Assembly (NCBI GenBank): GCA_965224465.1
Contig: OZ245049.1
Location: 1,170,001-1,202,000 of the forward strand
Length of the DNA stretch: 32,000 nucleotides
Source of the DNA: Flavobacteriaceae bacterium
GTDB lineage: Bacteria > Bacteroidota > Bacteroidia > Flavobacteriales > Flavobacteriaceae
Direction of reading: 5' to 3'
Part shown: one piece after another, positions 8,969 to 26,220 of the stretch
Layout: every line of letters begins with the position of its first letter
How positions within the stretch are numbered: the stretch's first letter is position 1
The notes under the pieces: model-generated
What the model was told of the DNA's origin: nothing
Databases searched by the model: none
What the model saw: only the letters and a program-made list of their open reading frames with translations
Position numbers and translations under genes: made by a program

Positions 8969-9322
8969 ATGTTAGGATTAGGTACAGAACACACGTATTA
9001 TTATCACTTATCTGCAGTTGATATGCGAAAAGGATTTAATGGATTAAGTGGATTAGTTAGTGAGCACATGGAACAAGAGCGAGATAGAAATAGTGTTTAT
9101 GCATTTATCAATAAGCAAAAAAATAAACTAAAACTTCTTCATTGGCGACCTGGAGGATTTGTACTGTATTATAAACGATTGGAACGAGGTATTTTTGAGC
9201 TTCCAAAATACGACATTGAAGATGGATTAGTAGTTTTGAGTTATACCCAAATGGTTATGGTTTTAGACGGAATTAGTATTATAAATACTCAGAAAAACGA
9301 ACGTTATTTAGAGGCTAAATAA
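8969..9322 (+). CDS. tnpB: IS66 family accessory protein TnpB (IS66 Orf2)
   Basis: 117 aa; VDMRKGFNGLSGLV ... LKLLHWRPGGFVLYYKRLERGIFELP is the characteristic IS66 Orf2 signature. Confidence 0.9.
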   Translation: MLGLGTEHTYYYHLSAVDMRKGFNGLSGLVSEHMEQERDRNSVYAFINKQKNKLKLLHWRPGGFVLYYKRLERGIFELPKYDIEDGLVVLSYTQMVMVLDGISIINTQKNERYLEAK

Positions 9323-9365
9323 TTCAATAAAACTGTAGGTTTTACCTGCTATTTAGTCTTGTTTT

Positions 9366-10868
9366 TTGTATATTTATAGTGTGGAAAACAATACAATAGA
9401 CATACAAAAAGAGCTGGTAATTTTAAAGATTGAACTTGAAAAAACAGCTCAAGAACTAGCTGAAATTAAGCAGCAATACGAGCAGCTTAAAAGAATGGTT
9501 TTCGGGTCTAAAAGCGAACGTTTTATCCCTGTTGACACAAATCAATTGTCGCTTTTCGGAAAAATAATAGCTGAGAAAGAAGAGGCATACAAAAAACATA
9601 TTGTAATCTACGAAAGAAAACAAAAGAAGAAAGGAAAGAAAAAACCTGTTCGCTCTTCTATACCTGCGCATTTTCCGCGAGTAGAAGAGATTATAGAGCC
9701 TAAGCACATAGAAGAAGGAGCTGTAAAAATAGGAGAAGAAGTTACAGAACTTTTAGAAATAACGCCTCTTTCCGTTTTTGTAAGACGAATTGTAAGACCT
9801 AAATATGCACTTCCGGAAGAAAAAGGCGTTGTTATAGCAGAATTACCAAGCTTACCGATACCTAAAGGAAATGCATCAGCAAGTTTATTGGCCTTTATAC
9901 TTATTTCAAAATTTGTAGACCATTTACCACTTTACAGATTAATTCAAATTTTTAAACGACAAGATTTAAAAGTAAGTAAATCAACAATTGGAGGATGGGT
10001 ATCTAAAAGTTCGGAGCTTATCGCTCCTTTATACGATACATTTAAGGCTCAGTTTTTAGAAAATGCCAATTATATTCAAGCAGACGAATCTCCTATAAAG
10101 GTTTTAGATAAAGACAAGAAAAAATCAACACACAGAGGGTATATGTGGGTGTATCGAAATCCTGTTAAAAATTTAGTTCTTTTTGAATACAATAAAGGGA
10201 GAGGAAAAGTTGTTCCAGAAGAGTTTTTTAAAGATTTCAATGGGACACTACAGTCCGATGGGTATGCTGCATACCAAAACTTAACAACAAAAGGAGAAAT
10301 TACTCTTTTAGGTTGCATGGCTCATGCTAGGCGGTATTTTGAGAAGGCGCTGGATAATGATCCTAAAAGAGCGGATGTTGTTTTGTTGGAAATTCAAAAG
10401 CTATACAAGATAGAACGTAAAATAAAAGAACAAGAATTAACTATTGAGCAAACTAAAGCATATAGAGAAAAACATGCATCACCTGTTTTAGACGGAATAG
10501 AAATTTATCTTACAAAAGAGCGAAAAAACGTACTGCCTAAAAGTGCCATAGGAAAAGCAATTGCTTATACTCTTAAAATATGGCAAAACCTAAAACTATA
10601 CATCGATGATGGCAGGTTTGAAATAGACAACAATAATATAGAAAATGCCATAAGACCTTTAGCTATTGGCAGAAAAAATTATCTCTTTGCTGGCAGTCAT
10701 GAGTCCGCACAAAACATAGCTCTATTTTATAGCTTTTTTGCTACTTGCAAAAAGAATAACGTAAACCCACATACGTGGCTATGTGATGTCCTTAATAGAT
10801 TACCAGAACATAAGGCTAATAAACTTTCGGAGTTACTGCCTCAAAATTGGAAGCCTGTTGATAAATAA
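9366..10868 (+). CDS. IS66 family DDE transposase (TnpC)
   Basis: 500 aa; coiled-coil N-terminus, then ADESPIKV, MWVY, LQSDGYAAY, CMAHARRYF and IENAIRPLAIGRKNYLFAGS motifs typical of IS66 transposases. The track start is a TTG at 9366; a GTG at 9381 is an alternative. Confidence 0.9.
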   Translation: MYIYSVENNTIDIQKELVILKIELEKTAQELAEIKQQYEQLKRMVFGSKSERFIPVDTNQLSLFGKIIAEKEEAYKKHIVIYERKQKKKGKKKPVRSSIPAHFPRVEEIIEPKHIEEGAVKIGEEVTELLEITPLSVFVRRIVRPKYALPEEKGVVIAELPSLPIPKGNASASLLAFILISKFVDHLPLYRLIQIFKRQDLKVSKSTIGGWVSKSSELIAPLYDTFKAQFLENANYIQADESPIKVLDKDKKKSTHRGYMWVYRNPVKNLVLFEYNKGRGKVVPEEFFKDFNGTLQSDGYAAYQNLTTKGEITLLGCMAHARRYFEKALDNDPKRADVVLLEIQKLYKIERKIKEQELTIEQTKAYREKHASPVLDGIEIYLTKERKNVLPKSAIGKAIAYTLKIWQNLKLYIDDGRFEIDNNNIENAIRPLAIGRKNYLFAGSHESAQNIALFYSFFATCKKNNVNPHTWLCDVLNRLPEHKANKLSELLPQNWKPVDK

Positions 10869-10896: not shown

Positions 10897-11107
10897 CAAT
10901 AAGCACAAAAAAAACAGTAAAAACATATCCCCACAAAAGAGCGTGAGAGCAAATGAACTAAAATTAGGTGATATCTATTAAGTGCTTTGTCGATAGCCTC
11001 TTCATTAAATCACGCAATCCCCATAGTCGTTTTTTTTGAGCTGGTATTGTTGATAGGATGTTTATGTTGGGCGCTACGTAACGTAGGAATACTTAGTTAT
11101 TGGTGGT
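10897..11107 (-). repeat. Module A (cassette-3' repeat), diverged copy
   Basis: acagtaaaaacatatccccacaaaagagcgtgagagcaaat...tctattaag..ctttgtcgatagcctctt...cacgcaatccccatag...gttgggcgctacg...cttagttatt is homologous to 14870-15060, 20210-20398, 21870-22062, 24640-24835 and 26820-27015. It ends 6 nt before the stop of the 11113 gene. GTTGGGC lies at 11066-11072. Confidence 0.8.
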
Positions 11108-11112
11108 AGTTT

Positions 11113-11694
11113 TTATATCACGTAATCTAAATTATATTCATCAGGATATATAATCGTTAAATCACGACGGTTAAGCCCGTTCTTTTCAAAAATACAAATT
11201 TGAATAGCTGGTTTATAATCTAGAAATTGAGGTCTTAATAATTCAAATATTAATCTGAATCGATATTTTTGGTACTCTTCTTTATATTCTGAAATAGATT
11301 TTATACCGTATACTCTAATTGCCTCGTAATCAAATCCTATTTTTGTTTTAATAAACTCTAATATCCTAGCTACTGTTGTTTCGGGTGTAATTGTAATTAT
11401 ATTTTGGCCTTTTAAGAATGCAATACTATTACTGAAATCATTCATATGGTCTGTATCTCCAACTAAATCAAAACAGTTACTTGTGTCAAAGTCGCAAATA
11501 GTTTGGCATATAATATACTTTTTTTTATGTCTAACTTCTCCCCACCAATGTGCATTTTCAACAAATGTATCCCAAAAATAAAAACCTTCACCAAGCCAGG
11601 TGTTACCCCAATTACAAGGGAAAGGTGCATTCTTTAAAACATATTCAGGATTACCTTTGTCTTTAAGAGTTTGATATAAGATTTTTGATTTCAA
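11113..11694 (-). CDS. Hypothetical protein, last gene of the three-gene SecB-like cassette (candidate toxin/effector)
   Basis: 193-aa ORF with a TTG start, 6 nt after the stop of the SecB-like gene. It contains the GEGFYFWDT...AHWWGE motif. No domain recognised with confidence. Confidence 0.55.
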   Translation of the reverse strand: MKSKILYQTLKDKGNPEYVLKNAPFPCNWGNTWLGEGFYFWDTFVENAHWWGEVRHKKKYIICQTICDFDTSNCFDLVGDTDHMNDFSNSIAFLKGQNIITITPETTVARILEFIKTKIGFDYEAIRVYGIKSISEYKEEYQKYRFRLIFELLRPQFLDYKPAIQICIFEKNGLNRRDLTIIYPDEYNLDYVI

Positions 11695-11700
11695 ATCTTC

Positions 11701-12108
11701 TTAATTTTGAGTAGTGTTTTCCTTTAAAGGAATTTCTAAAGAAGATAAATTAAGTGTAGGTAATACAATTGGTGGAATGTTTGCTTGTAATGTAACAGTG
11801 CCAATAAATGCTCTTATGTAAGGGAAAATTATTGCAATACTATTTCTGTAAAAGTAAGTTGGGATATCAGAAAAACTAGTGTTTTCTTCGAATTTGAAAG
11901 TTGAATGACATTCTATTTCAACAAAATTTTCTTCTGATTTACCACTTTTAGAAGAGAATATAATAATTAACTTAAATTCAGATTTTTTGTGATTAAATAT
12001 TCCTTTTGGATTAAATGAGATATCTATATCGTTTGATGTTTTTTTTGAAAAATCTATATTAATCTTTTCAAATATATAATTGTCTAAATAGAATGCGGCT
12101 TTATTCAC
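11701..12108 (-). CDS. SecB-like chaperone family protein
   Basis: 135 aa. By eye it aligns along E. coli SecB. F.L.NYIFEKINIDFS matches FQIQRIYTKDISFE. FVEIECHSTFKF matches FLCEVQQGGIFSI. AIIFPYIRAFIGTVTLQANIPPIVLPTLNL matches [30 protein letters not shown]. Confidence 0.6.
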   Translation of the reverse strand: MNKAAFYLDNYIFEKINIDFSKKTSNDIDISFNPKGIFNHKKSEFKLIIIFSSKSGKSEENFVEIECHSTFKFEENTSFSDIPTYFYRNSIAIIFPYIRAFIGTVTLQANIPPIVLPTLNLSSLEIPLKENTTQN

Positions 12109-12124
12109 TTTGATGTTTTATTTG

Positions 12125-12367
12125 TTATGCTAATTTAAATAAAAAATCCGAAGCGAACTTCGGATTTGTGATAATATTATTAAGAGAATTGAATTCCCAG
12201 AATTCATTGTTATTTTCTATCTTATGATGATAAATAGTTTGTTCTATAAATTCATCAATTTTCGAACCTATACTATTGTATTTTTCAGATTCAGCCCAAT
12301 CGCTTATAATTTGTTCTTTCGAATTACTCTGAAAATACAATTTCAAATTTTCTAAAATTGTATTCAT
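12125..12367 (-). CDS. Small hypothetical protein, first gene of the SecB-like cassette (candidate antitoxin)
   Basis: 80-aa ORF ending 16 nt upstream of the SecB-like gene. A TACTTTTG (TAnnTTTG) -7-like box lies on the minus strand at 12404-12411, about 36 nt upstream of its ATG. Confidence 0.5.
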   Translation of the reverse strand: MNTILENLKLYFQSNSKEQIISDWAESEKYNSIGSKIDEFIEQTIYHHKIENNNEFWEFNSLNNIITNPKFASDFLFKLA

Positions 12368-12514
12368 AATTTTTAGTTTTTATATTTTATTACAAATATT
12401 GTGCAAAAGTATCTTAAATTTATTTATAATAAAAATATTATTGATATATAATTCTTTTATTAAAGATAGTGATAATTTAAAGAATATCAAAAGATGTTGC
12501 TGTTTTTTTTAATT

Positions 12515-12985
12515 ACCACCAACACCTCTATATCCACAATAACGAGCAAAACTTGACGTTATTTCCGTAATAGCTACAATAGCGGTTGTAATTATATTTA
12601 TTTTTAAATCCGCTATATACGGGTTCTCCAAGGCATTAATTTCCAGCGGAAAAACACTAAAATTATGGATTAATGATTAATGTTTTCGGTTTGTGAACGG
12701 GCGAAATACGGCATTAAATAAACTGAAAAAACACTCTTTCAAAAAAGAGAGAAATAACATGAAAACATTCTGAAATATGGCGAGTAAAGGACTTAAAACA
12801 AGTGTTTCATATAAAAAAAAAGGATGTAATTACTCCCCAAATGAGTGTTCCTAAAACATTGAAATTACACAGGAGGGTGTTTTAGGAGCTGTTGGTTGTA
12901 ATTCCCCAGCGTTCAGTGCAACAAGACGATAAAATCAGTGGGCCCCCCCGGACCCACGTAATTTTAATCGCTAGGTGTTTTGTGC
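12515..12985 (-). repeat. Degenerate type I intergenic repeat
   Basis: 12515-12640 matches the P end of type I (accaccaacacctctatatccacaataac.agc.aaacttgacgttatttccgtaatagctacaatagcgg...aaatccgctatatacgg). 12760-12900 resembles the type I centre (aacatgaaaa...gacttaaaacaag...acacaaggag..gtttta). The module A end is replaced by other sequence. Confidence 0.6.
12938..12957 (-). terminator. GC-rich hairpin downstream of the PIN-like gene
   Basis: The minus strand reads GTGGGTCC-GGG-GGGCCCAC, an 8-bp stem including one G-T pair, followed by TGATTTTAT. It lies 29 nt past the stop at 12986. It is a striking GC-rich island in AT-rich DNA. Confidence 0.45.
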
Positions 12986-14168
12986 TTAGTTTTTATCATT
13001 TTCATCATCAATATTAAACTTTCCGAAATATTTAAAATATTTATTATTATAAAGTTCTCTATCAATTTTTAAACTCTGAAGTCTTTCCTCTAGACTTTTT
13101 AAATCTATTGATAGATGTATATATTCTTCTTGATTGTTATCTTTATCAAAAGGTTCTTCTTTAATAATATTTTGACGATGTATTAATCTATTAATCTGTT
13201 CTTTAACTAACTGAATTTTATGCTCTAAATATTGTGCTTTATCTCTTGATTTATATCTCTCTTTCTTCTTGAAGAATCTAAGTAATTCTTCCTTTTTTAA
13301 TTCTTCTAATTCCTGAATTTCTGCTCTTTTTATTTCTTTTATTTCTTCAAGAGCTTTTTTATTGCCTTGTTCTTTTAAATGTTCTAGACCATATGATAAA
13401 AATCTTTCAGATGAATACATATGAAAATTAACATTTGCTTCTAATTTTATTTCCTCAATAAGCTCTTGTCTTGGTCCCATATTTCGACCATCTTTGATTT
13501 TCCACCACCAATCAATTTTTCTTTCATCTGTGATTAGAATAATTGGTTTTTTGTCTTTTTTTGCTTTGTCAATAATTTGTTTCCATAATACTAAATCTCC
13601 AAATTTTCTATTACCTTGTTTTGTTTTTTCATCTTCAAAGCCAGGTGGAATCTTTTTTTCAAATCTAGTTTTTCCTTCTAAATATATTTCCTGTAATTGC
13701 TCTTCAGTATATTCTTCTGAAATTTTATTCTTGAAAATTAAAGTTAAATCTTCGAAAATTGAATCTTTTTGTAAAAAATCGCAATATTTTTTGATACTAC
13801 TTTCAACTTCATTATTGACATCTTTAAAAACTTTTTTTAAGGAACTATGTAATTTGTCAGATAAAAAAGGAGGTTTGCTTGTTGATTGTAAGTCGCTTTC
13901 AATTTGACCAATTTTAGATATAAATTCTTTATATGCTTTTTCTTGGTCAGCAATTACTTCGTAGCGATTTCTATTATATTCTAAAGCAGATTGATGTGGT
14001 AACCAAATCTGTTTATTAAATTTTGTTATAAGTTCTAATAACGCTTTTCTTGTGTCATTTGAATATCTATAAAGATTTAAAAGGACATTTGCATCAAAAC
14101 AAATAATTCCATTATTCCAAAGATCTTTAATTACTTTTCTTATAAAATCCAGAAAAAATTTCTTTCAT
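12986..14168 (-). pseudogene. PIN-like (DUF4935-type) domain protein with coiled-coil C-terminus, disrupted by a 1-nt frameshift near the start
   Basis: The ORF track reports only the last 164 aa (12986..13480). The same frame is open up to 14164 with no ATG, GTG or TTG. It reads ..IRKVIKDLWNNGIICFDANVLLNLYRYSNDTRKALLELITKFNKQIWLPHQSALEYNRNRYEVI...PIILITDERKIDWWWKI.., which resembles the PIN-like DUF4935 family. The ATG at 14168-14166 gives MKEIFSGFYKKSN*, one frame off. Removing one base from the T4 run at 14135-14138 (A4 on the coding strand) yields MKEIFSGFYKKVIKDLW..., a continuous 393-aa protein. Confidence 0.75.
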
Positions 14169-14191
14169 AAAGTTTTAGTTTTTCAAATTAA

Positions 14192-15060
14192 GCACAACAC
14201 CTCTATATCCACAATAACCAGCCAAAACTTGACGTTATTTCCGTAATAGCTACAATAGCGGTGTAATACTATTTATTTTTAAATCCGCTATATACGGTAT
14301 ACAGCGCCCTTCAAATATACAAAAAACATCCTTTTTGCACACTAACCTTTTAATTGTTTTTTAGAAACGTTTTCAACTTTAACCGCTGTTTTTTTAGAAT
14401 CTCAACAAGAATACTTGTTCTTATCCTAAACGTGCTGTTTTAATATTAGATAGTATCGTTGTTTTTACGGGGAATATTTAGGCGTATTTATTAGTTTTCA
14501 AGTGTTTACTCCTTTGTTTAGATTGTTTTTTGACGTTTTTAGCGGTGTACAGGGAAGGAATTGGAAAGATTTTGTGAATTTCTTTGAAGTTTGCGAACTG
14601 GAATAGCACCTCCCTAAATAAAGGGAAGAGACATTTTTTTGTACTAAGAAAAAGCAATAGCAAACCACCTTAAAACATGAAAAACAAAAGACTTAAAACA
14701 AGCATATAAATTAAAAAAAAGAGGTAGTCAAACCAAAAAGGACTGTCTTCAAATTATTGAAAATACACAAGGAGCTGTTTTAACTAATAAGCAAACAAAA
14801 AAAACCGTAGTCACGTAATGGGAAACACATGCCAAAATACTGCTAACCAATACTTATCCATATCTAAAAACAGTAAAAATATATCCCCACAAAAGAGCGT
14901 GAGAACAAATGACCTAAAAATAGGTGATATCTATTAAGGTCTTTGTCGATAGCCTCTTAATAAAATCACGCAATCCCCATAGTATCATCTTTTGAGCCAG
15001 CATCCTCAACAGGATGTTCATGCTGGGCGCTACACACCGCATGAACACTTAGTTATTGTG
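14192..15060 (-). repeat. Type I composite intergenic repeat, copy 1 (P module + centre + module A)
   Basis: About 870 bp, collinear with 19529-20398; roughly nine of ten positions are identical by eye. It has terminal inverted 9-mers CACAATAAC (14210-14218) and GTTATTGTG (15052-15060). Internal hairpins: ATAGCGG/CCGCTAT, AACAAG-AATA-CTTGTT, and CATCCT-CAAC-AGGATG (15001-15016). Confidence 0.9.
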
Positions 15061-15069
15061 CATAGTTTT

Positions 15070-15477
15070 TTATTCATTTAACATTATCTGTCCAATAGCA
15101 CCGACTATAAAAAATGTAATACAACTTATTACAAATAGAATGAATTGGGCGATATACATACCAAATGACAAAGTCTCACTTAATAAATTAATAACTAAAA
15201 TAATTGAGGAAGGAATCAATCCGAAAATTATTATCAATGATATTATTAATGCAACAAGTTGCCATCTAGTTTTTTTATTTGAATTTGAGATTCCAGATGA
15301 AAACTTCACTACTGATTGTCCAAATAATATTAAGGATATAATTGACCATTCAGTATTATAAAAGATTGCACTTAGGTTGTTTTCATAGCTTCTAACAATT
15401 AATAATATTATAATTGGGAGCAATGTAAATAAGAATTCAGAGGTTAAAATATATTTTATTGTTTTATCTAATTTCAT
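15070..15477 (-). CDS. Small integral membrane protein (about 4 TM helices)
   Basis: 135-aa ORF that is almost entirely hydrophobic segments. Its start lies 3 nt after the stop of the upstream 287-aa gene, so they form a tight operon. Confidence 0.6.
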   Translation of the reverse strand: MKLDKTIKYILTSEFLFTLLPIIILLIVRSYENNLSAIFYNTEWSIISLILFGQSVVKFSSGISNSNKKTRWQLVALIISLIIIFGLIPSSIILVINLLSETLSFGMYIAQFILFVISCITFFIVGAIGQIMLNE

Positions 15478-15479
15478 TC

Positions 15480-16343
15480 TTAATTATTATGAATTACGTT
15501 AATAACTTCAATTATTTCTAATTTGTCAGAAATTAAGTACCCGTTTCTATTGTATTTTGAAGTTTGTCTAACACGTACATTAAGTGAATCTCCAGGAACA
15601 ACAGGAACTTGACCTGAATGAAATTTCTCCAACCACTCTTGGTGCAATATTTTAACAGTTACTGATTTAGTTCCGTGTTTAAAATTCCAAGCAGACTCAC
15701 CTAAAAAGTCAGGTTTTTTGATTAGATAAATCATTTCAGATTCATTTACTATTTCCTTTTCGGTTAAAGCTTCTTCAACAGCTTCAATGTCTATTTTGGG
15801 AGTTCCCGAGCTTATTTCTTTAACTTCTTTGTTATTACTCTTTAACTCAAAAGACTCATTACCGTTGAGTTTGTCGGTAGAATCATTAATTGAATTTATT
15901 GATTTCGCAAGTTTCAATAAATCTGGTTCTGCATAATTAAAAGTTTCTGTTAATTCTTTTTCATTTGCAATTTCTGAGATAGTAGTTTTTAAGTTCTCTA
16001 AATCTTCAACACTTGATTTTTTATCAGCTATGAATTTTAACGTTTCAGCCCTAGATTCTTCAATATATTCTTCAATTTTTTCGATTTCAGGAGCATTGTC
16101 AATTTGTCCATCTTGACTAATAACAATTGCACTATAAAGCTTTCCAATAATAGAACCTTTTTCAATGTCATCTAATATGATTTTAGATTTCACTGAAGTA
16201 TTGACACTTTCCGCAATTAAGTAATCTAAGTCATTGATTCCTTCAATCATCTCAGCAAAAGACCTAAATAACCTACTAGGATTTTCAGTATCTCTTTCGA
16301 AATCAAGTTTTATCTCAAATTTACTGTTAAATTCTTTTTTCAT
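15480..16343 (-). CDS. Hypothetical acidic/coiled-coil protein, partner of the 4-TM protein
   Basis: 287-aa ORF with typical coding composition. The central part is E/K-rich and the C-terminal ~80 aa look globular. No domain recognised. Confidence 0.6.
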   Translation of the reverse strand: MKKEFNSKFEIKLDFERDTENPSRLFRSFAEMIEGINDLDYLIAESVNTSVKSKIILDDIEKGSIIGKLYSAIVISQDGQIDNAPEIEKIEEYIEESRAETLKFIADKKSSVEDLENLKTTISEIANEKELTETFNYAEPDLLKLAKSINSINDSTDKLNGNESFELKSNNKEVKEISSGTPKIDIEAVEEALTEKEIVNESEMIYLIKKPDFLGESAWNFKHGTKSVTVKILHQEWLEKFHSGQVPVVPGDSLNVRVRQTSKYNRNGYLISDKLEIIEVINVIHNN

Positions 16344-16575
16344 TTTCCACTATTGTTCTTTCTCAGGAAGCGTTTTTAAATTATGCACAACGACCCGGCT
16401 AAGAAATCGTAGGGGAGTTTGAAACTCTGCCCTTTCAATTTACCACTTAGCCAAGCCAAATATTTTTATAATTAATTTTTCTTTTTTCGTTATCAAAATT
16501 TTGGTTTGGCGGTTTTTAATCGAAGCTCTGAACTTCCAATTTATCAACAAAACCCCTATGTTTTTTTAGTCATTG

Positions 16576-19038
16576 TTAGGGCTTCGTGTTTTTATTTATT
16601 GGTATAATATCTTCAATTTTGTCTTTTGAACCACCCTCTTTAAACATATCAGTTTCCTTAATCTCAATAATTTTACAATCTTTGGAGAACCAAATATATC
16701 CAAAAAAGTCTACATCAAATTCAATATTATTATCTAATTCTTCAATGTTTTTACCCCCTTTGATATACTCATCTTTAAGCTCTGTATTTGAATTTAGGTC
16801 AGATATTTTACTGTAAATATGAAGGTTTGGATTAATGTTTTCCATTTCACCCCAACGCTCTTGTGTCTTTTTTGGTAAACCGTCTATTTCTGACCAATCC
16901 CGATGTTTTACCATTGGCTTTCCAGTTTTTTCAATCAAAAACAGCGTATTATGCACCATGGAGTGCCCAGATGTGTAGCTATAGATTGGAATAGAATTAA
17001 ATCGATAATCTTCATTTCCAATTGGTTCGGTTATATTAGCATCCTTGAAATCTTTATGATACTTTATATTAATTCCAAAGCTAATTAATAAATAATCATC
17101 AGAGGAAGGATTTAATTGGCTTACGGCATCAAATATTTGTCCACTAGGCACTTCATATTTTTTGAATTTAGGTAATAAGGAAAGCTTAGTTGCGAAATGG
17201 GTATAATACTCACTTTTAATAGCTTGACCTGTAATTGAATCAGCATTTAAATGATGAACACTAGTATTATCAATAAATGCTTCTCTACTTAATAAAAAAC
17301 GAGTTCCTCTAATAACTTGCATGTATTCACTAATGGAGTCTCTATTACTTTTTTTAATATCAATCTCTGAACTAACCCTGTTTATATCATCATATGCTTT
17401 TCTAATAGAAGAAACTGTATTTGATTTTAAAGCCTCTATTTTTTCTTCTGAAAGTTCAGTAGTTTCTAATGTTTCTTGAAACCCATCTTTTATTTTAGCG
17501 GCTAATTTTTCAATATAAACTAACGGAGGTTCGACATTAATATTTTTGCAAAATTGTTTGGTAATTATATTTAAACCAAGTTTTTCTAATAAATCAGAAT
17601 TTGAAAGATGTTTTTCAATTATTTTACTAAATACTTTCAAGTTATCCTGCCATTCTTTTTTTTCACTCTGCTTTTTAGGTATTTGTGGAAGACCATGTAA
17701 TGGATGGTTACCATAATAACCAAAAGTTATATAGAGTCTAAGAAATAATAATCCAAGATATTCGCATATTACAAATTTCACATCTCTTTTATTATTCATA
17801 TTATCAAATCCCAAGTCTTTAAACCAAAAGCGTATAACTATGGAAGTGCTATGGAATCCTATTCCTAAATACGTGAAAAATAACTCAAATATACTTTGGG
17901 GATTTTGAGGTACTAATACAAAGTGAGGTGGTTGTGATTGTGTGTAAAGCCAAGCTTCTTTTAATGTTAAATATTGTTCTTTATGCATAAGGTAAGCACC
18001 AAGAGCAGTTTGTAATTGAATAAAGTACTCTCTATTTTGTGAAAACTTTTTTCGTTTTTCAATACTAACTTTTGTCTCTTTAAAGTTGTCATCATGCTCA
18101 GGATACGGAACCTTTAAATGGAAATCACAATATTGGTGTGAATTTCCCCAAAATTCTAAAACCTTTTCAGTTCTTCCCGATTCAATAACTGCTACAAGGT
18201 TTCTCCAAATAGCATTATAAGATTCTTGATGTAAAAATTGAGGTGCATGCTTCCCATAGTTCTCTGTAAAAAACACCGAGCCTATAAATGATTCAAATCT
18301 TTGGTAATAAAACTCCTCATTGGCTTTTAGGTAGGTAATTACGATATCAAATGTTCCATTATATATTTCAGGAGGGTATTGAACATATTCTTCGTTTTTT
18401 TGGTCTACAAATCTTAAGAAACCAAAAACACGATAGATATATAAATCACGAATATTATTTTCTAGTTTACGGTCTTTATTATTAATTGAATAGATAAAAA
18501 GGTCAATAATAGGGTGCCAGTAGTCAAGTATTTTTTCTTTTATTCCCCTCGAATTTTTTAGTTTTTCTCTTTCTTTAGTGTATTTGTCAAAGGTAAATCT
18601 GTTAGAATATAATTCGAACAAGTCTTGACCATTTTGATATTTTAATAATAGATTTAGATAGGGAAAAAATAGAATTAGTAGTGTTATTACAGAGATAAAA
18701 GCAACGATAAATACTCCTATTGACATTACAAAACAAAGAACAGTTAACCCTACAGATATTCTCAAATTCCAAATAAATAGTTTATGAATTTTTTCTTTCT
18801 TAAACTGATAAATAATGTGAGTGGATTTATATTGCTCATTTAACTTACTTACAGTTTGGATTATTAAAGGATATGCAATACCTAGTATTGCAGGAACAAA
18901 GGCGAGAACAATTTTAAACATTGGATTGTCAATGTATAGCCTTATAATTAAATCTTTGAGGGGTTGAAAAACGGCAACTAAAAGACCATATGATATGGAA
19001 TATATCTCTTTAATTATTTCAATAGTTTCCATATTCAT
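16576..19038 (-). CDS. Large membrane-anchored protein of unknown function
   Basis: 820-aa ORF. The N-terminal ~130 aa contain about 4 hydrophobic helices; the rest is soluble with no recognisable motif. Its stop codon is embedded in GCCCTAAC on the coding strand. Confidence 0.7.
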   Translation of the reverse strand: MNMETIEIIKEIYSISYGLLVAVFQPLKDLIIRLYIDNPMFKIVLAFVPAILGIAYPLIIQTVSKLNEQYKSTHIIYQFKKEKIHKLFIWNLRISVGLTVLCFVMSIGVFIVAFISVITLLILFFPYLNLLLKYQNGQDLFELYSNRFTFDKYTKEREKLKNSRGIKEKILDYWHPIIDLFIYSINNKDRKLENNIRDLYIYRVFGFLRFVDQKNEEYVQYPPEIYNGTFDIVITYLKANEEFYYQRFESFIGSVFFTENYGKHAPQFLHQESYNAIWRNLVAVIESGRTEKVLEFWGNSHQYCDFHLKVPYPEHDDNFKETKVSIEKRKKFSQNREYFIQLQTALGAYLMHKEQYLTLKEAWLYTQSQPPHFVLVPQNPQSIFELFFTYLGIGFHSTSIVIRFWFKDLGFDNMNNKRDVKFVICEYLGLLFLRLYITFGYYGNHPLHGLPQIPKKQSEKKEWQDNLKVFSKIIEKHLSNSDLLEKLGLNIITKQFCKNINVEPPLVYIEKLAAKIKDGFQETLETTELSEEKIEALKSNTVSSIRKAYDDINRVSSEIDIKKSNRDSISEYMQVIRGTRFLLSREAFIDNTSVHHLNADSITGQAIKSEYYTHFATKLSLLPKFKKYEVPSGQIFDAVSQLNPSSDDYLLISFGINIKYHKDFKDANITEPIGNEDYRFNSIPIYSYTSGHSMVHNTLFLIEKTGKPMVKHRDWSEIDGLPKKTQERWGEMENINPNLHIYSKISDLNSNTELKDEYIKGGKNIEELDNNIEFDVDFFGYIWFSKDCKIIEIKETDMFKEGGSKDKIEDIIPINKNTKP

Positions 19039-19070
19039 TTAACTTGTTCAATGGTCAGTGCATGAGCCCT

Positions 19071-19240
19071 AACACTAGGGCTAATAGCAGTACGACCGAA
19101 GGGTAGTATTGATTTTAGCTAATGTTGGGTGTCAGTACTTCGATTTTGTTATTCATATTGCTCAAATCTATAAAAATCTTTTTCTAGGAAGCACTATAGT
19201 ACTAGAAAAGAACCAAATAATAGGAGGATATTTCGTAACA
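19071..19240 (-). repeat. Module C (shared 5' leader), copy 1, containing an attC-like imperfect palindrome (19066-19130)
   Basis: Homologous to 21304-21470. The plus strand reads GCCCTAAC-ACTAGGGCTAATAGCAGTACGACC-GAA-GGGTAGTATTGATTTTAGCTAAT-GTTGGGT. A TAGATTTG -7-like box lies on the minus strand at 19163-19170. Confidence 0.7.
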
Positions 19241-19528
19241 GTATTTAATTCTATTTGATGTTTATTCGGAAATAAACGTAGTCTAATTAGATACAGAAAA
19301 CAACCTTTTATACTGATTATCAACTAATTACTTGATTTTGTCAAAAAAATCAACTAACTTGACTAAGTTTTTAGAACATTCCAATGTTTACAAGAGCGAT
19401 CTTGTACAGTGTAACTGTTAAAAACTTGGTTGAGACTTCAACTAACTATAATCCGTATAAAAACTCCAAATTTATCCGCAACAGCTCCTCAATTTTGTTA
19501 CGAAATCCAATTTCTTTTCTTGTATTAC

Positions 19529-20398
19529 ACCCAACACCTCTATATCCACAATAACAAGCCAAAACTTGACGTTATTTCCGTAATAGCTACAATAGCGGTG
19601 TAATACTATTTATTTTTAAATCCGCTATATACGATATACAGCGTCCTTCAAATATACAAAAAACATTCTTTTCGCACACTAACCTTTTAATTGTTTTTTA
19701 GAAAAGTTTTCAACTATAACCGCTGTTTTTTAGAATCTCAACAAGAATACTTGTTCTTATCCTAAACGTGCTGTTTTAAAATTAGTTAGTATCGTTGTTT
19801 TTACAGGGAACATCTAGGCGTATTTAGTAGTTTTCAGGTGTTTACTCCTTTGTTTAGATTGTTTTTTGACGTTTTTAACGGTGTACAGGGAAGGAATTGG
19901 AAAGATTTTGTGAATTTCTTTGAAGTTTGCGAACTGGAATAGCACCTCCCTAAATAAAGGGAAGAGACATTTTTTTGCACTAAGAGAAAGCAATAGCAAA
20001 CCACCTTAAAACATGAAAAACAAAAGGCTTAAAACAAGCATTTAAATTTAAAAAAAAGAGGTAGTCAAACCAAAAAGGACTGTCTTCAAATTATTAAAAA
20101 TACACAAAGAGCTGTTTTAACTAATAAGCAAACAAAAATAAACGTAGTCACGTAAGGGGAAACGAATGCCAAAATACTGCTGACCAATACTTATCCATAT
20201 CTAAAAACAGTAAAAACATATCCACACAAAAGAGCGTGAGAGCAAATAACCTAAAAACAAGTAGTATCTATTAAGGTCTTTGTCGATAGTCTCTTAATTA
20301 AATCTCGCAATCCCCATAGTATCATCTTTTGAGCCGGCATCCTCAACAGGATGTTTATGTTGGGTGCTACTCACCGCACGAACACTTAGTTATTGTGT
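19529..20398 (-). repeat. Type I composite intergenic repeat, copy 2
   Basis: Collinear with 14192-15060. ACCCAAC lies at 19529-19535, the hairpin CATCCT-CAAC-AGGATG at 20338-20353, GTTGGGT at 20359-20365 and GTTATTGTG at 20389-20397. It abuts the dinD stop (20403). Confidence 0.9.
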
Positions 20399-20402
20399 AG
20401 CG

Positions 20403-21239
20403 TTATTTTAGTTTTTTGGGATTTTTCAAACTTTTCTTTTCATCACTTTTTAAACGTCTGTCAATTTTACTTATGTCTTCTTCTGGAGATAAATTTTCAG
20501 GTGTAATTCCACGTGAAATTAACGTGTTTCGTACAGATTTATTATTCGTAATATGTTCCCTTGAAATTTGACTTTCAGTTCTCATATTATTCTCTTTTGC
20601 ATTGAAGATTGTAATTTCAGTAGCGAAATCTTTTGCTTTTAAAAGTATGGTAGGCATAAAATCAGCTAATGGCTTATTTTTAATTCCCCATCTATCTTTC
20701 ATTTGTTGAGTTGTCTTCCCAAATAAAGCAGTATCTCCTTTACTCCTGATTAGGGCGAAATTCTTATTGCCTCCAGTTTGTTCAAATATTATTTGAGATA
20801 ATTCTTTTTCAGTAGATTTTAATTTCTCTCTAGCTAAAACTCTTTCGTGCTCAAGCATTTTTTCCTCAATAAGTTCGGCTTTTCTAGTTTGAATAGCAAA
20901 ATAACGTTGTGCAAATGCTATTGTATTTTTTCTAGGGTCTCCGTTTTGAGTTATTAAGTAACAAGCAAATCTTGTCAACATTATATCTTCAATCTCTCTT
21001 TCACTTCCTGAGCCTAGAGTAACCATTTTGTTGACATCAACAAAATGGTCATCTATTTGCTGTTCAGAAACTTCACAAGCAGTTTTAGCTTTGTTAATTA
21101 CTAAGTTAAAGTTTCTCCATTCGTTATAGCCTAATAAATGTTGTAAGTCTCTTGCCATCCAAAATTCAACTCCATCAGATGTTTTATTGGAATGTGATTC
21201 AAAATTTTCGGTAAGGCTATGTATTATAGATGTTTTCAT
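20403..21239 (-). CDS. dinD: DNA damage-inducible protein D (DinD family)
   Basis: 278 aa. By eye, WMARDLQHLLGYNEWRNFNLVINKAKTACEVSEQQIDDHF...IMLTRFACYLITQNGDPRKNTIAFAQRYFAIQTRKAEL aligns closely with E. coli DinD (WSARQLGKLLGYSEYRHF...[36 protein letters not shown]). Confidence 0.8.
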   Translation of the reverse strand: MKTSIIHSLTENFESHSNKTSDGVEFWMARDLQHLLGYNEWRNFNLVINKAKTACEVSEQQIDDHFVDVNKMVTLGSGSEREIEDIMLTRFACYLITQNGDPRKNTIAFAQRYFAIQTRKAELIEEKMLEHERVLAREKLKSTEKELSQIIFEQTGGNKNFALIRSKGDTALFGKTTQQMKDRWGIKNKPLADFMPTILLKAKDFATEITIFNAKENNMRTESQISREHITNNKSVRNTLISRGITPENLSPEEDISKIDRRLKSDEKKSLKNPKKLK

Positions 21240-21303
21240 TCTTTAAAAATATGAATTTCAATTGTAATATCGTTGTTTTTCCTCATTTCTCCTAATGCTA
21301 CAC

Positions 21304-21470
21304 AACACTAGGGCTAATAGCAGTACGACCGAAGGGTAGTGTTGATTTTAGCCCTAGTGCTGGGTGTCAGTGCTTCAATTTTGTTATTCATATTGCTCAA
21401 ATCTATAAAAATCTTTTTCTAGGAAGCACTATAGTACTAGAAAATAACCAAATAACAGAAGGATATTTCC
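21304..21470 (-). repeat. Module C, copy 2, with the better-preserved attC-like palindrome (21300-21365)
   Basis: A 12-bp perfect inverted repeat, CACTAGGGCTAA (21306-21317) and TTAGCCCTAGTG (21348-21359), with imperfectly paired inner arms. On the coding strand it is flanked by ACCCAGC and GTTGTGT. A TAGATTTG box lies at 21398-21405 (minus strand). Confidence 0.7.
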
Positions 21471-22075
21471 ATAGACAGCTACAATAGCGGTGTAATTATA
21501 TTTAGTTTTAATTCCGCTATATACGGTATACAGCGTCCTTCAAATATACAAAAGACATCCTTTTTGCACACTACCCTTTTAATTATTTTTCAGAAAAGTT
21601 TTCAACTTTAATCGCTGTTTTTTAAAATCTCAACAAGAGTACTTGTTCTTATGATAAACATGCTGTTTAATATTAGAAAGTATCCTTGTTTCTACGGGGA
21701 GCATCTAGGCGTATTTAGTAATTTCAGGTGTTTGTTTATCTACTTACAGTCCCAAATGACCGATATAAATAGTTAGTTTACATTCTAGTGTTATTGAAAA
21801 CAGAACGATAGCCACGCAAAGAAAAATGCATACCAAAACGCTACTAACCAACAATAATCAGTATCTAAAAACAGTAAAAACATATCCCAACAAAAGAGCG
21901 TAAGAACAAATGACCTAAAACAAGTAGTATCTATTAAGGTCTTTGTCGATAGCCTCTTCATTAAATCTCGCAATCCCCATAGTATCATCTTTTGAGCCGG
22001 CATCCTCAACAGGATGTTTATGTTGGGTGCTACGCACCACACGAACACTCTTAGTTATTGTGTGTTGGCTTTATT
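21464..22075 (-). repeat. Type I repeat variant (P end truncated, centre replaced by an inverted family-B segment)
   Basis: 21470-21735 matches the type I P region from agctacaatagcgg onward. 21749-21815 is the reverse complement of the family B 3' half (ccaaatgaccgatataaatag...aacagaacgatagcc). 21850-22062 is module A (hairpin 22001-22016, GTTGGGT 22022-22028). Confidence 0.8.
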
Positions 22076-22530
22076 TGTTATTATTCTTGTTCAAACTCCA
22101 CATTTACATCAAAATATTTAGGGTTATTATTTATTTCAAATAAGTTTCCGGAAATTTCAATTCCTTTGAAATCGGGTAAAATCCTAACATTTTCATTGTT
22201 TACTTTTTTTATTTTATATGGAAATAAATATCTTGATTTAAATCTAATCATATCAGCCATAGGATTATCTTTGGTCAAAGTTGTATCTTTATTTTTCTCA
22301 GATTCTGCCAAGCCTTTAGGACTTATTTTTACAGAAAACCTTTCTCTATTGAATGTCGTATTATAAAATTTATTAAAATCAGGAATACCATTATCTTTAT
22401 CTTTTTTCATATTTTTTGTTTTGTTAGATAACAATTCTAATTCTTTAATATTCTGTCCTTTTAATTTTTCGCCAAATAATTTTAATTCTGAAACATCATC
22501 AAAAGTGTAAATGATTTTCATTTCAAATTT

Positions 22531-23520
22531 TAGGGTTACCTATTTAAATCTCACTAATATTTTGTTTTTCTGAAAGGATTTTTTACTTTTAGAAAAAGAA
22601 AGCTATGAAAATATTAAAAGAATTATCTCGTAAAGAATTTCACACTAAGTTTGGAGAAGAGAGTTTATGTTTATCTTTTTTATCATCTGTAAAATGGGAA
22701 GAAGGTTTTTCCTGTTTTAAATGTAAAAACACAAAGTTTTTAAAAGGAAAAAGAGCGTATAATAGACGTTGTACAAAATGCGGATATGATGAGTCTCCAA
22801 CTGCGAACACTCTATTTCATAAAGTTAAATTTGGTATTGTAGAAGCCTTTGAAATGACTTATGATATAGTTACCAGTAAGAAAGGAGCGAATAGTATTTG
22901 GTTAGCAGAAAGGCACGGTGTTAAACAGATGACAGCTTGGTTGTTTAGAAGAAAAGTACAAGAAGCAATGAAAAGTAGTGAGAAATATCCTTTAGAAAAA
23001 GAAGTTCATGTAGACGAGTTTGAAATAGGTACACCAAAAAAAGGAGAGCAAGGACGTAGTAAATCAGCTACTAAAATTAGAGTTGTAATTGCCATTGAAA
23101 ATAGAAATGGTAAACCAGGCAGAGCATACGCAAAGGTGATAGAAGATTATAGTTGCAAATCATTAAAACCAATATTTGAGAAACATATAAAGTTTGATGC
23201 CAATATAGTTACAGATGGCTGGTCAGGATATAAACCTTTAAAAAAGAACTTCCCAAATTTAACACAAATATTATCTAATAATGGTGAGAATTTTAAGATG
23301 CTACATTTTCAGATAAGAAACTTTAAAAATTGGTTAAGAGGCGTTCATTCGTATTGTGAGAAAGAGTATATAAATCAATACATTCAAGAGTATTTCTATC
23401 GATTTAATCGACTCAATTTTAGAGAAAACATCTTAGAAAACCTACTAAAAAGAATGTGTAAAGAAAAACCAATAACCTATAAATCAATCAAATATATTGC
23501 GACTTAAGAGGGTAACCCTA
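22531..23520 (+). mobile_element. IS1595-family insertion sequence
   Basis: Inverted ends TAGGGTTACC (22531-22540) and GGTAACCCTA (23511-23520). It is flanked by a perfect 8-bp duplication TCAAATTT (22523-22530 and 23521-23528). It carries a single transposase ORF. Confidence 0.85.
22605..23507 (+). CDS. IS1595 family transposase (N-terminal zinc ribbon + DDE domain)
   Basis: 300 aa. CFKC...CTKCG zinc-ribbon pairs, then VHVDEFEIG, VTDGWSGY and a C-terminal YIQEYFYRFNR region typical of ISXO2-like/IS1595 transposases. Confidence 0.85.
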   Translation: MKILKELSRKEFHTKFGEESLCLSFLSSVKWEEGFSCFKCKNTKFLKGKRAYNRRCTKCGYDESPTANTLFHKVKFGIVEAFEMTYDIVTSKKGANSIWLAERHGVKQMTAWLFRRKVQEAMKSSEKYPLEKEVHVDEFEIGTPKKGEQGRSKSATKIRVVIAIENRNGKPGRAYAKVIEDYSCKSLKPIFEKHIKFDANIVTDGWSGYKPLKKNFPNLTQILSNNGENFKMLHFQIRNFKNWLRGVHSYCEKEYINQYIQEYFYRFNRLNFRENILENLLKRMCKEKPITYKSIKYIAT

Positions 23521-24080
23521 TCAAATTTTTTAGATATTGAATCTGCTTTAATGTACAAACTGAAATTCTCTAATTGTTTTATTTTATCTTGTTTTTCCTT
23601 ACTTAACTTAGATATGCTGTCTTTTTTTGCATTTAAAAATTCTGAAAAAATAATTAAAGTATCTAACTGCTTATTATTTTTTCCTTCTTTAGTGTTCTTT
23701 CCCATTTTCATCATTTCAGATAGGTCAAACCCTAAACTATACCTTCCACTTCCATTAGTTTCAAATTTTGTTTCTTGAACAATTTCACAACTTGTTAGAA
23801 TGAACAATGAAATGATAAATACTATGTTAATTTTCTTCATTTATTTCGGTTTTACGCTTGTTTTTAGCTTACACACAACGATTTGTATAAGAACAATAAG
23901 GGATTAAAATGTACTCTATTTTCCGTTTATTACTTAGTGAAATTTACAATTTTTCTTTTAAAAACAGATACGAAAAATTGTAAATTTTGCGGACTTTGTA
24001 AAATGTACTAAACTTTGATTTAAGCACCAAACCCCATATTATTTTTACACGTTGTTGAACTAAACCTAAAGGTAGATTTT

Positions 24081-24835
24081 ACACCCGCTGCGCAAAGTCT
24101 CCCGACTTTGAGCCTTGTTTTCCCTAATATATTTTTATCGTAAAAAAAATTAAAATAGCTCAACAAACAGCCGATGTAGTAGCAGTCATAAAATGTATCT
24201 TATGTGCAACGAATAACTAATTAAGAGGTCATTTTACTATGAATGAAAACATGAAATATTACTCTAGGAATATAGGAATCAAAATAATAGGTATCGTTTA
24301 TCTATTTAACCGTTTAAATACTATTGTTTTGAGGTATTCAAAAATTCAACTATTATAACTTTACTAGCCGGCTATTTTGGGTACTCCAAGGGTCGGGATA
24401 TACGCTCATCTCTTCTGTATTTTTAGATTGGAGTCTCTCCGTTACACCAATCTAAAAAAAACTAAAGGGTAACCGCAGCTATCCCTAACGTAAATGAGTA
24501 TTGAGATGTTACATGTAAGAATGAAGAAATAAGAGAGGATGTAAAATACATGAATGTCCTAATTTAAATAGCCATACAAATGTTTATAAAACGCATGCCA
24601 AAAGCGCTGCTGACCAATACTTATCCGTATCTAAAAACAGTAAAAATATATCCCCACAAAAGAGCGTGAGAGCAAATAATTTAAAACAAGTGATATCTAT
24701 TAAGGTCTTTGTCAATAGCCTCTTAATAAACCTCGCAATCCCCATAGTATCATCTTTTGAGCCGGCATCCTCAACAGGATGTTTATGCTGGGCGCTACGC
24801 ACGGCACGAATACATAGTTATTGTACATAATACTT
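24081..24835 (-). repeat. Type II composite intergenic repeat, copy 1 (module E + REP-like element + module A)
   Basis: About 750 bp, nearly identical to 26267-27015. It contains hairpin CAAAGTC-TCCC-GACTTTG (24093-24110). It also has a CCAAGGGTCGGG...GCTATCCCTAACG element with an internal 12-bp-stem hairpin (TTTTTAGATTGG/CCAATCTAAAAA). Module A hairpin lies at 24766-24781. Confidence 0.9.
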
Positions 24836-24842
24836 TCTTTAT

Positions 24843-25163
24843 TCAGAATCCAAATCCGAACGGTTTTTTCCATTTCGTTATGGTTTTTAATTCTGTTGGT
24901 ATTTCCCAAATATCCAATTCCATTTTCCAATCAGTTTTATATCCTTCTGCTTTGGGGTCAAATTTTAGTTTCTCATTCTTAAATCCGTTATCCTTGAATA
25001 TATTCACAATGTGTTGTAATAGATTCCAAACGGGTTTTTCGTATTCTTCTATTGTTTGCGCTGTAAATTGGAAATAAAAGCCAGATTCCGCTCTCCAAAA
25101 TATTAGAGAAGCAGTTCCTTTGTCACATTTCGGACGGTCAATAACCCAATACAATTGGTCCAT
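24843..25163 (-). CDS. Hypothetical 106-aa protein (cassette gene; its 5' end is duplicated at 29786-29861)
   Basis: ORF MDQLYWVIDRPKCDKGTASLIFWRAESGFYFQF... with coding-like composition. Module A starts right after its stop. No domain recognised. Confidence 0.55.
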   Translation of the reverse strand: MDQLYWVIDRPKCDKGTASLIFWRAESGFYFQFTAQTIEEYEKPVWNLLQHIVNIFKDNGFKNEKLKFDPKAEGYKTDWKMELDIWEIPTELKTITKWKKPFGFGF

Positions 25164-25567
25164 CGTCTCAGTTGTAATTATCAGCTAAGAAGTATTGCTC
25201 CGCTGAATTCAGAGTTTTAAATTTCTCAAAATTAGGAATTATTTATTCGACATTCTTTTCGTCCTCATTGAATGCAAATTCGATGAAATTTCTCTTAATA
25301 AGGAATATTTTATGTGGTCGGATTATCATTTTTTTCGCATTATGTACAACGCTTAGCTAAGCGCAGTACAAGTATAAAAGTACAAACTTTCAAGCTTGCA
25401 ATTAGCCAAAGCTTTTTATTTTGTTTTATCTTCTTTTTCTAAGACCAAATCAAAAAATGTACCTCCCGTGAGACTTCGTGTTGGCGGTCTTCGTTAAATG
25501 TACTGAACTTTTGGATAATCACAAAACCCGCATTGATGTTAGGTGTATTGTACTTTCGCACTTTTAT

Positions 25568-25852: not shown

Positions 25853-25854
25853 GA

Positions 25855-26193: not shown

Positions 26194-26200
26194 CCTGCAA

Positions 26201-26220
26201 ATGTAACGAATAAGTTACAT
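26201..26220. promoter_or_regulatory. Palindromic operator-like site upstream of the toxin-antitoxin pair
   Basis: ATGTAAC-gaataa-GTTACAT, a 7-bp perfect inverted repeat 8 nt upstream of the GTG start at 26193. Confidence 0.4.

Follow-up and report, generated by a model that had tools for sequence, protein, structure and literature searches.

Among described systems, the closest to the one treated here is that of the rAID arrays (acquired interbacterial defence, recombinase-associated) of gut Bacteroidales, in which a XerD-like recombinase is combined with co-oriented short genes and with conserved intergenic motifs "reminiscent of integrons" (Ross et al., 2019, 10.1101/471110; PMC12247911). 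A crossover point, a pairing of core and inverse core or a site structure is not described in these papers (10.1101/471110; PMC12247911). Surveys with IntegronFinder have found almost no integrons in Bacteroidetes, namely isolated integrases and one complete integron in Salinibacter (10.1101/2022.02.28.482270), and a later study counts Bacteroidota among the clades in which no integrons had been found before (10.1101/2024.07.02.601686). This paper deals with a stretch of 32,000 nucleotides from a Flavobacteriaceae bacterium (assembly GCA_965224465.1, contig OZ245049.1, positions 1,170,001 to 1,202,000; referred to as the window, in whose numbering all coordinates are given), which probably carries a chromosomal gene-cassette array of an integron-like system of Bacteroidota. 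In integrons, the bases that follow the GTT of a site pair with the inverse core of the cassette to which they belong (R′/R″), and it is this rule that is also found here.

From approximately 30264 down to 10897 every real gene of the window is on the minus strand, and the genes are separated by mosaic repeats (list of open reading frames (ORFs), self-comparison). The array genes are mutually unrelated, have a G+C content of 25–35% (window approximately 31%) and make up at least 12 cassettes, between which there are inter-cassette units of 0.17–1.9 kb. An initial annotation of the sequence had proposed that repeat conservation stops at a GTT just upstream of the cassettes, and this is what is generally observed: all 11 inter-cassette units examined in the window end in GTT, with tails from at least five unrelated sequences. 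The four copies of the P module are near-identical through ...GGATATAGAGGTGTT and diverge right after the GTT (12523-12521, 14198-14196, 19535-19533, and 27957-27955; alignment), and the two copies of the C module are conserved through ...GCCCTAGTGTT and then divergent, with the GTT at 19073-19071 and 21306-21304 (alignment). Five further GTT ends, absent from the initial annotation, have their G at 30048, 26268, 25350, 23879, and 16391; their tails, ...GCTAAGCGTT (twice), ...GCCGGGTCGTT, ...ACAAATCGTT, and ...GCGGATGTT, belong to other sequence families than P and C. It should be noted, however, that the divergence, described at first as immediate, is incomplete: variable bases do follow the GTT, but most copies have AATT or AATA at positions +7 to +10.

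At 8 of the 11 window junctions, the 6–10 nt that follow GTT recur in reverse complement as the last bases of the same cassette, right before the AAY of the next unit (Table 1). For example, in cassette c8 the stop codon lies inside the partner (T of AGCCCT plus AA of AAC), and the resulting pair, GTTAGGG and CCCTAAC, is close to a classical integron core and inverse core. For c7 a complementary partner was looked for and none was found; since a C module follows approximately 150 nt further on, c7 is a degenerate or empty cassette. Homology with the unit after c4 seems to have overwritten the 3′ partner of c2, the position of which is covered by a 95% repeat (24081-24840 and 26267-27025; self-comparison). 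In c1 the copy of the DUF4274 gene (29861-29718) is cut after 76 nt and fused to the S module described below, 13 nt inside the usual start of the module; this truncation is a deletion independent of the GTT and AAY sites.

On the 3′ side of the cassettes, conservation begins past the stop codons at (C)ACAATAACTAAG, as the initial annotation had stated, with six occurrences in the window at one mismatch or less where 0.56 are expected. In the related genome of Aequorivita viscosa the same start is followed by the same motifs, and the hairpin differs in sequence while keeping its pairing. With a degenerate search pattern derived from this conserved start, the motif AATAACTAWGNRTTC-N13-17-CCCARCAT was found in more than 120 metagenome contigs, mostly marine, and always 10–15 nt past a stop codon on the same strand. 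One of these loci, L141, is a compact contig with three cassettes whose tail is unrelated to the tails of the window; still, its units end in ...CGTT, and the end of each cassette is repeated in reverse complement by the bases that come after the GTT at its start.

The complementarity was tested in the metagenome loci without assuming a GTT, by taking the 10 nt before AATAAC at each site and seeking their reverse complement upstream with at most one mismatch. It was located for 69 of 112 non-redundant sites, 400–3007 nt upstream (median 815), and the complementary word was preceded by GTT in 67 of the 69, as compared with a mean of 6.7 hits, 0.6 of them with GTT, when the 10-mers were swapped among loci. 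Together with the 11 ends of at least five unrelated tails in the window, this greatly exceeds chance. The first base past GTT is a purine in 66 of 67 cases and is the sole constrained base of the heptamer. The consensus is ...A-A-M-C-G-T-T/R-N5-A-A-T-T at the 5′ end and A-C-T-N6/A-A-T-A-A-C at the 3′ end (slashes mark the boundaries), with an A.C mismatch fixed at +7 and with position +10 complementary in 84%, though it lies outside the search word. GTT is therefore a crossover boundary of the integron type, as suggested initially by analogy with the integron core, since the bases after it pair with the end of the same cassette and since it closes many unrelated tails in many organisms; the proposed core GTTRRRY, however, has to be replaced by GTT-R-N5-AATT. 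Arrays without S modules follow the same rule: L165, the five cassettes of A. viscosa (L002), and c3, c8, and c10 of the window. L165, for example, has 135-nt sites with ACCTAAC and GTTAGGT. The boundary rule GTT/N7 ... N7′/AAY applies to the isolate A. viscosa, a plasmid of Chondrinema litorale, the 3.5-Mb genome L165, and over 100 marine metagenome contigs. A cassette accordingly has the form GTT/N6-7 AATT ... gene(s) ... AACT N6-7′/AAY; N′ denotes N in reverse complement.

The inter-cassette units that have remained free of insertions are built like attC sites: an inverse core (N7′ plus AAY), a 5–7 nt ACACC-like spacer, an imperfect hairpin, a spacer of 7–9 nt, and (C)GTT. In A. viscosa and L165 the sites are 135–150 nt long and consist of N7-AAC, a spacer (ATCACC or ACACGCC), an imperfect hairpin (e.g., TATACGCAAGCAGGGG ... 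CCCTGCCTGCGTATA), a further spacer, and (C)GTT-N7. Judged by layout alone, the sites of L165 (135 nt) and L002 (approximately 150 nt) have the R″-spacer-L″...L′-spacer-R′ arrangement of integron attC, with one A/G asymmetry in the L stem. The native sites of the window are 189–202 nt long and the other sites up to approximately 900 nt. For none of the repeats was a family found in Rfam, either at gathering or at permissive thresholds. The real inverse core lies where the unit begins and consists of the cassette-specific 7–10 nt and AAY. The sequences GCCCAAC, ACCCAAC, and GCCCAGC, which the initial annotation had regarded as fitting the inverse core RYYYAAC, are indeed present 40 nt into the unit but are the 3′ strand of a covarying hairpin; GCCCAAC was rejected as a candidate because the hairpin that contains it is the end of a miniature element that derives from IS91 and has been inserted into the site. 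Likewise, the inverted 9-mers CACAATAAC and GTTATTGTG said to bound the type I unit exist, but their CAC is cassette-specific sequence.

The P-module tail carries TATATTTG at 14311-14318, and at the same place in the other P modules, which matches the Bacteroidetes −7 promoter motif TAnnTTTG. This may be a promoter, in which case the units would drive the downstream cassette. When genome and metagenome collections were scanned for exact P-module patterns, there was no match; the unit tails are lineage-specific. Exact look-ups of the proteins of the window gave no match either, the source genome not being in the collection.

The S module, by which many of the units start, has compensatory changes in 6 of the 12 pairs of its hairpin. 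In about 20 of 120 loci, genes for an IS91-family Y2 transposase (NF033538, E = 4e-126) and for a 298-aa tyrosine recombinase are present in antisense approximately 270 nt past the S module, and after these genes come a hairpin, TTTAGTTCAAC, and then the native tail and GTT. The IS91 element ends at GTTCAAC, and 60–200 nt separate this end from the cassette junction that follows. A Y2 transposase is absent from the window, and the two insertion sequence (IS) ends at 24822-24054 enclose the element alone. Past GTTCAAC at 24054, homology to native units resumes at 24053 and runs to 23877, full length (alignment). The S module is accordingly the end of a miniature element of the IS91 type that has entered the site at its inverse core, and 24054-24822 is such an element at the inverse core of a native unit. 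That the S module is part of the attC-like site was considered and rejected, since native sites without S exist and the unit 24822-23877 is an element within a native unit. Many sites of this genome have grown to 0.8–0.9 kb because an IS91-derived miniature was inserted at the inverse core and because the P and C tails are long. In L071 and L086, CTTAGTTATT, which is AATAACTAAG in reverse complement, directly closes the S hairpin. The result is a compact palindrome of approximately 75 nt, perhaps the IS91-type element in a minimal form or the footprint of its excision.

Group II introns are found at the same inverse-core position, also in antisense, in L141 and in the C. litorale plasmid. They follow right after the cassette inverse core (N7′-AAT) at approximately 6640-7020 of L141 and at 8625-10465 of L155, the latter with matches to RVT_1 and GIIM.

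In related loci a tyrosine recombinase of 374–386 aa is encoded directly upstream of the cassettes and co-oriented with them. In six of six loci, a short hairpin and a spacer lead from its stop codon to [CT]GTT, 35–70 nt on, where a cassette with the usual kind of start begins. The recombinase reaches 223 bits with the NCBIfam model NF040815 "site-specific tyrosine recombinase/integron integrase" (cutoff 220) and thus passes, and it fails with the integron-integrase model TIGR02249 (220.5, cutoff 265), to which it aligns in two stretches. Among solved structures it is closest to XerA (4a8e, E = 1.4e-42). The family has thousands of members, largely in Bacteroidota. One homologue has an HigBA cassette and an S-like site downstream, another a 7.4-kb restriction-modification-like cassette with perfect GTTAGGT and ACCTAAC ends. 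Contigs with homologues (L160-L163, L156, L158, L159) mostly end 0.1–0.7 kb past the stop codon of the recombinase; such breaks fit repeat-rich arrays that break assemblies, and the arrays are expected to be under-represented in draft genomes and metagenome-assembled genomes. Searches from Bacteroidales-type homologues yielded no named protein of B. fragilis and so gave no link to the rAID recombinase BF9343_RS08045.

We propose that a Xer-like tyrosine recombinase from the array head would cut at or within GTT, that the cassette would be excised as a circle in which its own ends N7′-AAY and GTT-N7 pair and so close the site, and that the excised cassette would be inserted at the head site or at another GTT junction. 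With such a cut and such an exchange of circles, repeat conservation would stop at GTT because the next bases travel with the cassette. The array of the window would be served by a recombinase of this kind, and folded single strands would be used. The cut could be at G/TT or at GTT/, both being left by conservation alone. The arm past GTT varies from cassette to cassette but is in every case the complement of the far end of its own cassette, which argues for a base-paired and hence folded substrate rather than a duplex binding site.

Several points weigh against this reading. The complementarity at positions 0–9 is partly forced, and thereby inflated, by the search criterion, and the metagenome sample consists of S-module-bearing (IS91-derived) units only. 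Among the fetched loci the same cassette was not found in two contexts, and no empty site was seen. Units of 0.8–2.6 kb are hard to reconcile with the simple folding of a single-stranded hairpin, and the folding energies of top and bottom strand, compared for 65 tails, did not differ significantly (p = 0.066). The alignment of the recombinase with VchIntIA is in two pieces that skip residues 208-242, the IntI-specific insertion, with which IntI recognizes the extrahelical bases of a folded attC. Finally, there is no recombinase gene within the window, the head of the array lying beyond it. Cues to the recombined strand conflict: the mismatch at +7 favours the bottom strand, the GTT/AAT pair in S-bearing sites the top strand. 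G.T and A.C asymmetries were dropped as a marker of that strand after no folding bias had been found.

Of the alternatives, ordinary double-strand recombination of the Xer/dif type at the same boundary, as in the pdif modules of Acinetobacter plasmids, with duplex sites at GTT bound by the recombinase and with the inverted ends as by-products or in another role, survives best but is unlikely. The similarity of the recombinase to XerA, its lack of the IntI-specific domain, and the absence of a significant folding bias all fit it, and cassettes flanked by inverted sites resemble pdif modules. Yet the 7 nt past GTT differ between cassettes, which allows neither a protein-binding arm nor a common overlap; the covariation between them and the other end of their own cassette is nevertheless perfect, which argues for a base-paired substrate; and duplex recombination between the inverted ends of one cassette would invert the cassette rather than move it.

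Much less probable is it that the array arose by rolling-circle transposition of the IS91/ISCR type, the units being elements or remnants with read-through genes and GTT being an IS91 target or terminus. IS91-family elements do have GTTC/CTTG targets, the S module is an IS91-family end, and about 20 of 120 loci have an antisense IS91 transposase and a tyrosine recombinase between S and a hairpin-GTTCAAC end. However, the same GTT and AAY junctions are present where there is no S or IS91 sequence at all (L165, L002, and the window units 16577-16389, 25549-25348, and 12981-12521), the IS ends short of the cassette junction, and capture by rolling circle does not predict inverted complementary ends for each cassette.

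Very improbable, too, is a role of the conserved elements as RNA, be it as terminators, processing sites, or leaders that insulate cassette transcripts. In its favour the hairpins covary and the S module starts right past stop codons; but there are no matches to Rfam families, a pairing of 5′ and 3′ cassette ends across 0.4–7 kb has no obvious function in RNA, a recombinase gene consistently adjoins the first junction, and the S hairpin belongs to a transposon end. Strongly disfavoured, and least probable of all, is that the repeats are no more than regulatory or intergenic sequence held in common (promoter plus leader), which homologous recombination or gene conversion would have spread, with GTT as an incidental end, for although the P module has the promoter-like TATATTTG and sits upstream of genes, and gene conversion between units is visible (e.g., in the 95% repeat that covers the c2 partner), GTT ends at least five unrelated tails in the window and dozens elsewhere, and homologous exchange within repeats cannot yield cassette-specific inverted ends.

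The array of integron-like cassettes carries a cargo of HigBA, PD-T4-9, PDC-S13, PIN_8, two DUF4274 copies, MSEP-CTERM, and unknowns, the first four of which are typical contents of arrays of this kind; a family of type VI secretion system (T6SS) immunity proteins was not detected with the libraries used. The pair in c3 is a HigB/HigA toxin-antitoxin (matches to Gp49 and HTH_3), c6 encodes a Bro-N protein with a match (E = 2.6e-115) to PDC-S13, a family of candidate defence proteins, the 287-aa protein of c9 is a weak match to PDC-S42, and c11 carries the anti-phage system PD-T4-9 (PD-T4-9_A, E = 8e-82; PD-T4-9_C, E = 3e-59). The PIN_8 protein of c10 (E = 4.6e-62) is frameshifted in a T-run: the gene (14168-12986) has 392 open codons, its ATG (14168) being in another frame and the shift occurring in a run of seven T at approximately 14158-14152. 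It could be a pseudogene or a gene controlled by slippage.

Upstream of the other array genes there is a gene for an MSEP-CTERM/VIT protein (30262-31794 and beyond), which is a cassette too, given the native unit that follows it. Because this gene has its own native site, the array continues beyond the upstream edge of the window; its downstream end is truncated by a probable IS66 element. A homologous gene is a verified cassette in A. viscosa (L002, 4088-7468). Homologues with 65–68% identity occur in Flavobacteriales, Chitinophagales, Marinilabiliales, Spirochaetia, and Fibrimonadales (L001-L034), a scattered distribution that suggests horizontal spread. The window copy comprises 510 aa with no in-frame start codon upstream of 31794; the homologues have approximately 830 aa.

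The insertion at the downstream end is presumably of the IS66 family, judging from a reading of its protein sequences. Directly outside the array there is a Flavo-1 RNA (56 bits; 8647-8719, minus strand), and two 52-nt stretches within the IS91-derived miniature elements (24456-24507 and 26641-26692) are 73% similar to part of it. Together with the G+C content of the window, this RNA makes it probable that the host belongs to Flavobacteriia. One inter-cassette unit contains a 534-bp sequence three times in tandem (28270-29719; 98% identical), each copy with an ORF of 109–170 aa without family match. An 86-nt dispersed repeat, TAGCAATCGTTCTATTTTTCAACAA...TTTGGGTTGTAATTG, is present at 2103-2188, 3935-4020, 5706-5791, 28366-28451, 28900-28985, and 29434-29519, and inverted at approximately 21741-21812, hence inside the array and also outside it between housekeeping-type genes; it may be a separate small mobile element or one resembling repetitive extragenic palindromes (REP-like).

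Table 1. Features of the cassette array and its surroundings (window coordinates; partner, the complementary sequence at the 3′ end of the same cassette)
Feature	Position	Strand	Remarks
Cassette array	10897..30264	-	Self-comparison; co-oriented ORFs; junction table
c1 start	30036..30048	-	GTT then GTTCATAATG; DUF4274 copy truncated at 29786 and fused to S module
c2 start	27945..27957	-	P-module end, GTT then AGCAATAATT; 301-aa protein
c3 (26265-25550) start	26256..26268	-	GTT then GTACTTCATG; partner GCGAAAGTAC at 25559-25550, then AAT
c4 (25347-24823; DUF4274) start	25338..25350	-	GTT then GTACATAATG; partner TATTATGTAC at 24832-24823
c5 (23876-22060) start	23867..23879	-	GTT then GTGTGTAAGC; partner GCCAACACAC at 22069-22060; IS1595 interrupts c5
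c6 (21303-20395) start	21294..21306	-	C-module end, GTT then GTGTAGCATT; partner AACGCTACAC at 20404-20395
c7 start	19523..19535	-	P-module end, GTT then GGGTGTAATA; C module approximately 150 nt further on
c8 (19070-16578; 820-aa protein) start	19061..19073	-	C-module end, GTT then AGGGCTCATG; partner AGCCCT then AAC, 16583-16575
c9 (16388-15058; genes of 287 aa and 135 aa) start	16379..16391	-	GTT then GTGCATAATT; partner AACTATGCAC at 15067-15058
c10 start, junction of the initial annotation	14186..14198	-	GTT (14198-14196) then GTGCTTAATT (14195-14186); partner AACTAAGCAC at 12991-12982
c11 (12520-11102) start	12511..12523	-	GTT then GGTGGTAATT; partner AACTACCACC at 11111-11102, then AATAAC
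Native unit, 189 nt, without S module	16389..16577	-	AAC, AATGAC..., ending ...CTTAGCCGGGTCGTT; homologous to other native units (alignment)
Native unit, 202 nt, between HigBA and DUF4274 cassettes	25348..25549	-	AAT ACACC ... GCTTAGCTAAGCGTT
Native unit past MSEP-CTERM/VIT gene	30046..30242	-	Approximately 90% identical to 25348-25549
Unit without S module, P-module tail	12521..12981	-	AAA ACACC TA... right at c10 end
P module, unit tail	14196..14509	-	TATATTTG motif, then hairpin ACACCGCTAT/ATAGAGGTGT abutting GTT; self-comparison
S module	14971..15057	-	AATAACTAAG, covarying bulged hairpin, then ...ATGGGGATTG; self-comparison
Other S-module copies	Starts 11101, 20394, 22059, 24822, 27009		Partial copy 29785-29718
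Gene-less miniature IS91-type element, both ends kept	24054..24822	-	S hairpin end at 24822; hairpin plus TTTAGTTCAAC end at 24075-24054
IS1595-family transposase inside c5	22605..23507	+	DDE_Tnp_IS1595, E = 1.6e-21
Insertion, presumably IS66 family	8969..10868	+	ORFs of 117 aa and 500 aa; repeat homology ends at 10897, a cut in the last unit

The system works like an integron. As in integrons, the cassettes are co-oriented and each is followed by an imperfect-palindrome site, which is bounded by GTT (3′) and AAC (5′); stop codons overlap the inverse core; the bases past GTT belong to the next cassette and pair with the inverse core of that cassette; the sites of one genome are alike; the cargo includes toxin-antitoxin and anti-phage genes; and an insertion sequence and group II introns have invaded the sites, in antisense. 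This does not mean that it can be filed as an integron, because it departs from integrons in its integrase and in the orientation of the integrase gene: the recombinase is Xer-like without the IntI-specific insertion, and it is encoded directly upstream and co-oriented, whereas an integron integrase is divergent, with attI and a Pc promoter. There are further differences. The paired core is longer (GTT plus N7 plus mismatch plus 3, versus GTTRRRY), the sites have 135–200 nt in their native and 0.9–2.6 kb in their invaded form as compared with 57–141 nt for attC, and the units may carry promoters of their own, whereas integron cassettes are promoterless.

With the rAID arrays the window shares conserved, repetitive intergenic motifs, a low G+C content, and the phylum, and in both cases assemblies break inside the arrays. 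A rAID array has a tyrosine recombinase upstream of at least two co-oriented genes of low G+C content; the window has the co-oriented genes, and related loci have a tyrosine recombinase. The rAID arrays, however, are defined in Bacteroidales and by orphan T6SS immunity genes, whereas the host here is Flavobacteriia-like and its cassettes carry toxin-antitoxin and anti-phage genes. In Acinetobacter plasmids, the pdif (Xer) modules likewise consist of genes between inverted sites on which Xer-type recombinases act, but these are conserved 28-bp duplex sites, whereas the inverted ends found here differ from cassette to cassette, their complementarity alone being conserved. The IS1111-attC elements and group IIC-attC introns that parasitize the attC sites of integrons have their counterpart in the IS91-type element and the introns of L141 and L155, all of which sit in antisense at one fixed position of the site, the inverse core. 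The insertion sequence, however, is here of the IS91 family (Y2 transposase plus small tyrosine recombinase), and many copies are gene-less miniatures that now make up most of the repeat. Sites of attC type thus attract dedicated parasites in Bacteroidota, too.

The analysis yields a concrete and testable rule for the cassette boundary, together with an architecture of the site and a candidate recombinase. The rule enables cassettes to be delimited automatically in Bacteroidota, so that their pool of toxin-antitoxin and anti-phage genes can be mined, and the mechanism of rAID-type arrays becomes directly testable. It is conceivable, though we regard it as tentative, that Bacteroidota have a widespread integron lineage of their own that includes the rAID arrays of the gut and the arrays of marine Flavobacteriia: with a Xer-like recombinase lacking the IntI domain, with folded GTT/AAC cores and variable arms that travel with the cassettes, and with sites that are the dedicated targets of an element composed of IS91 plus a recombinase and of group II introns. 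If this is true, integron-style gene capture would be older, or would have been reinvented more often, than the IntI family, and a phylum-wide pool of cassettes with defence systems and even an MSEP-CTERM surface protein would have been overlooked by surveys that are based on IntI and attC.

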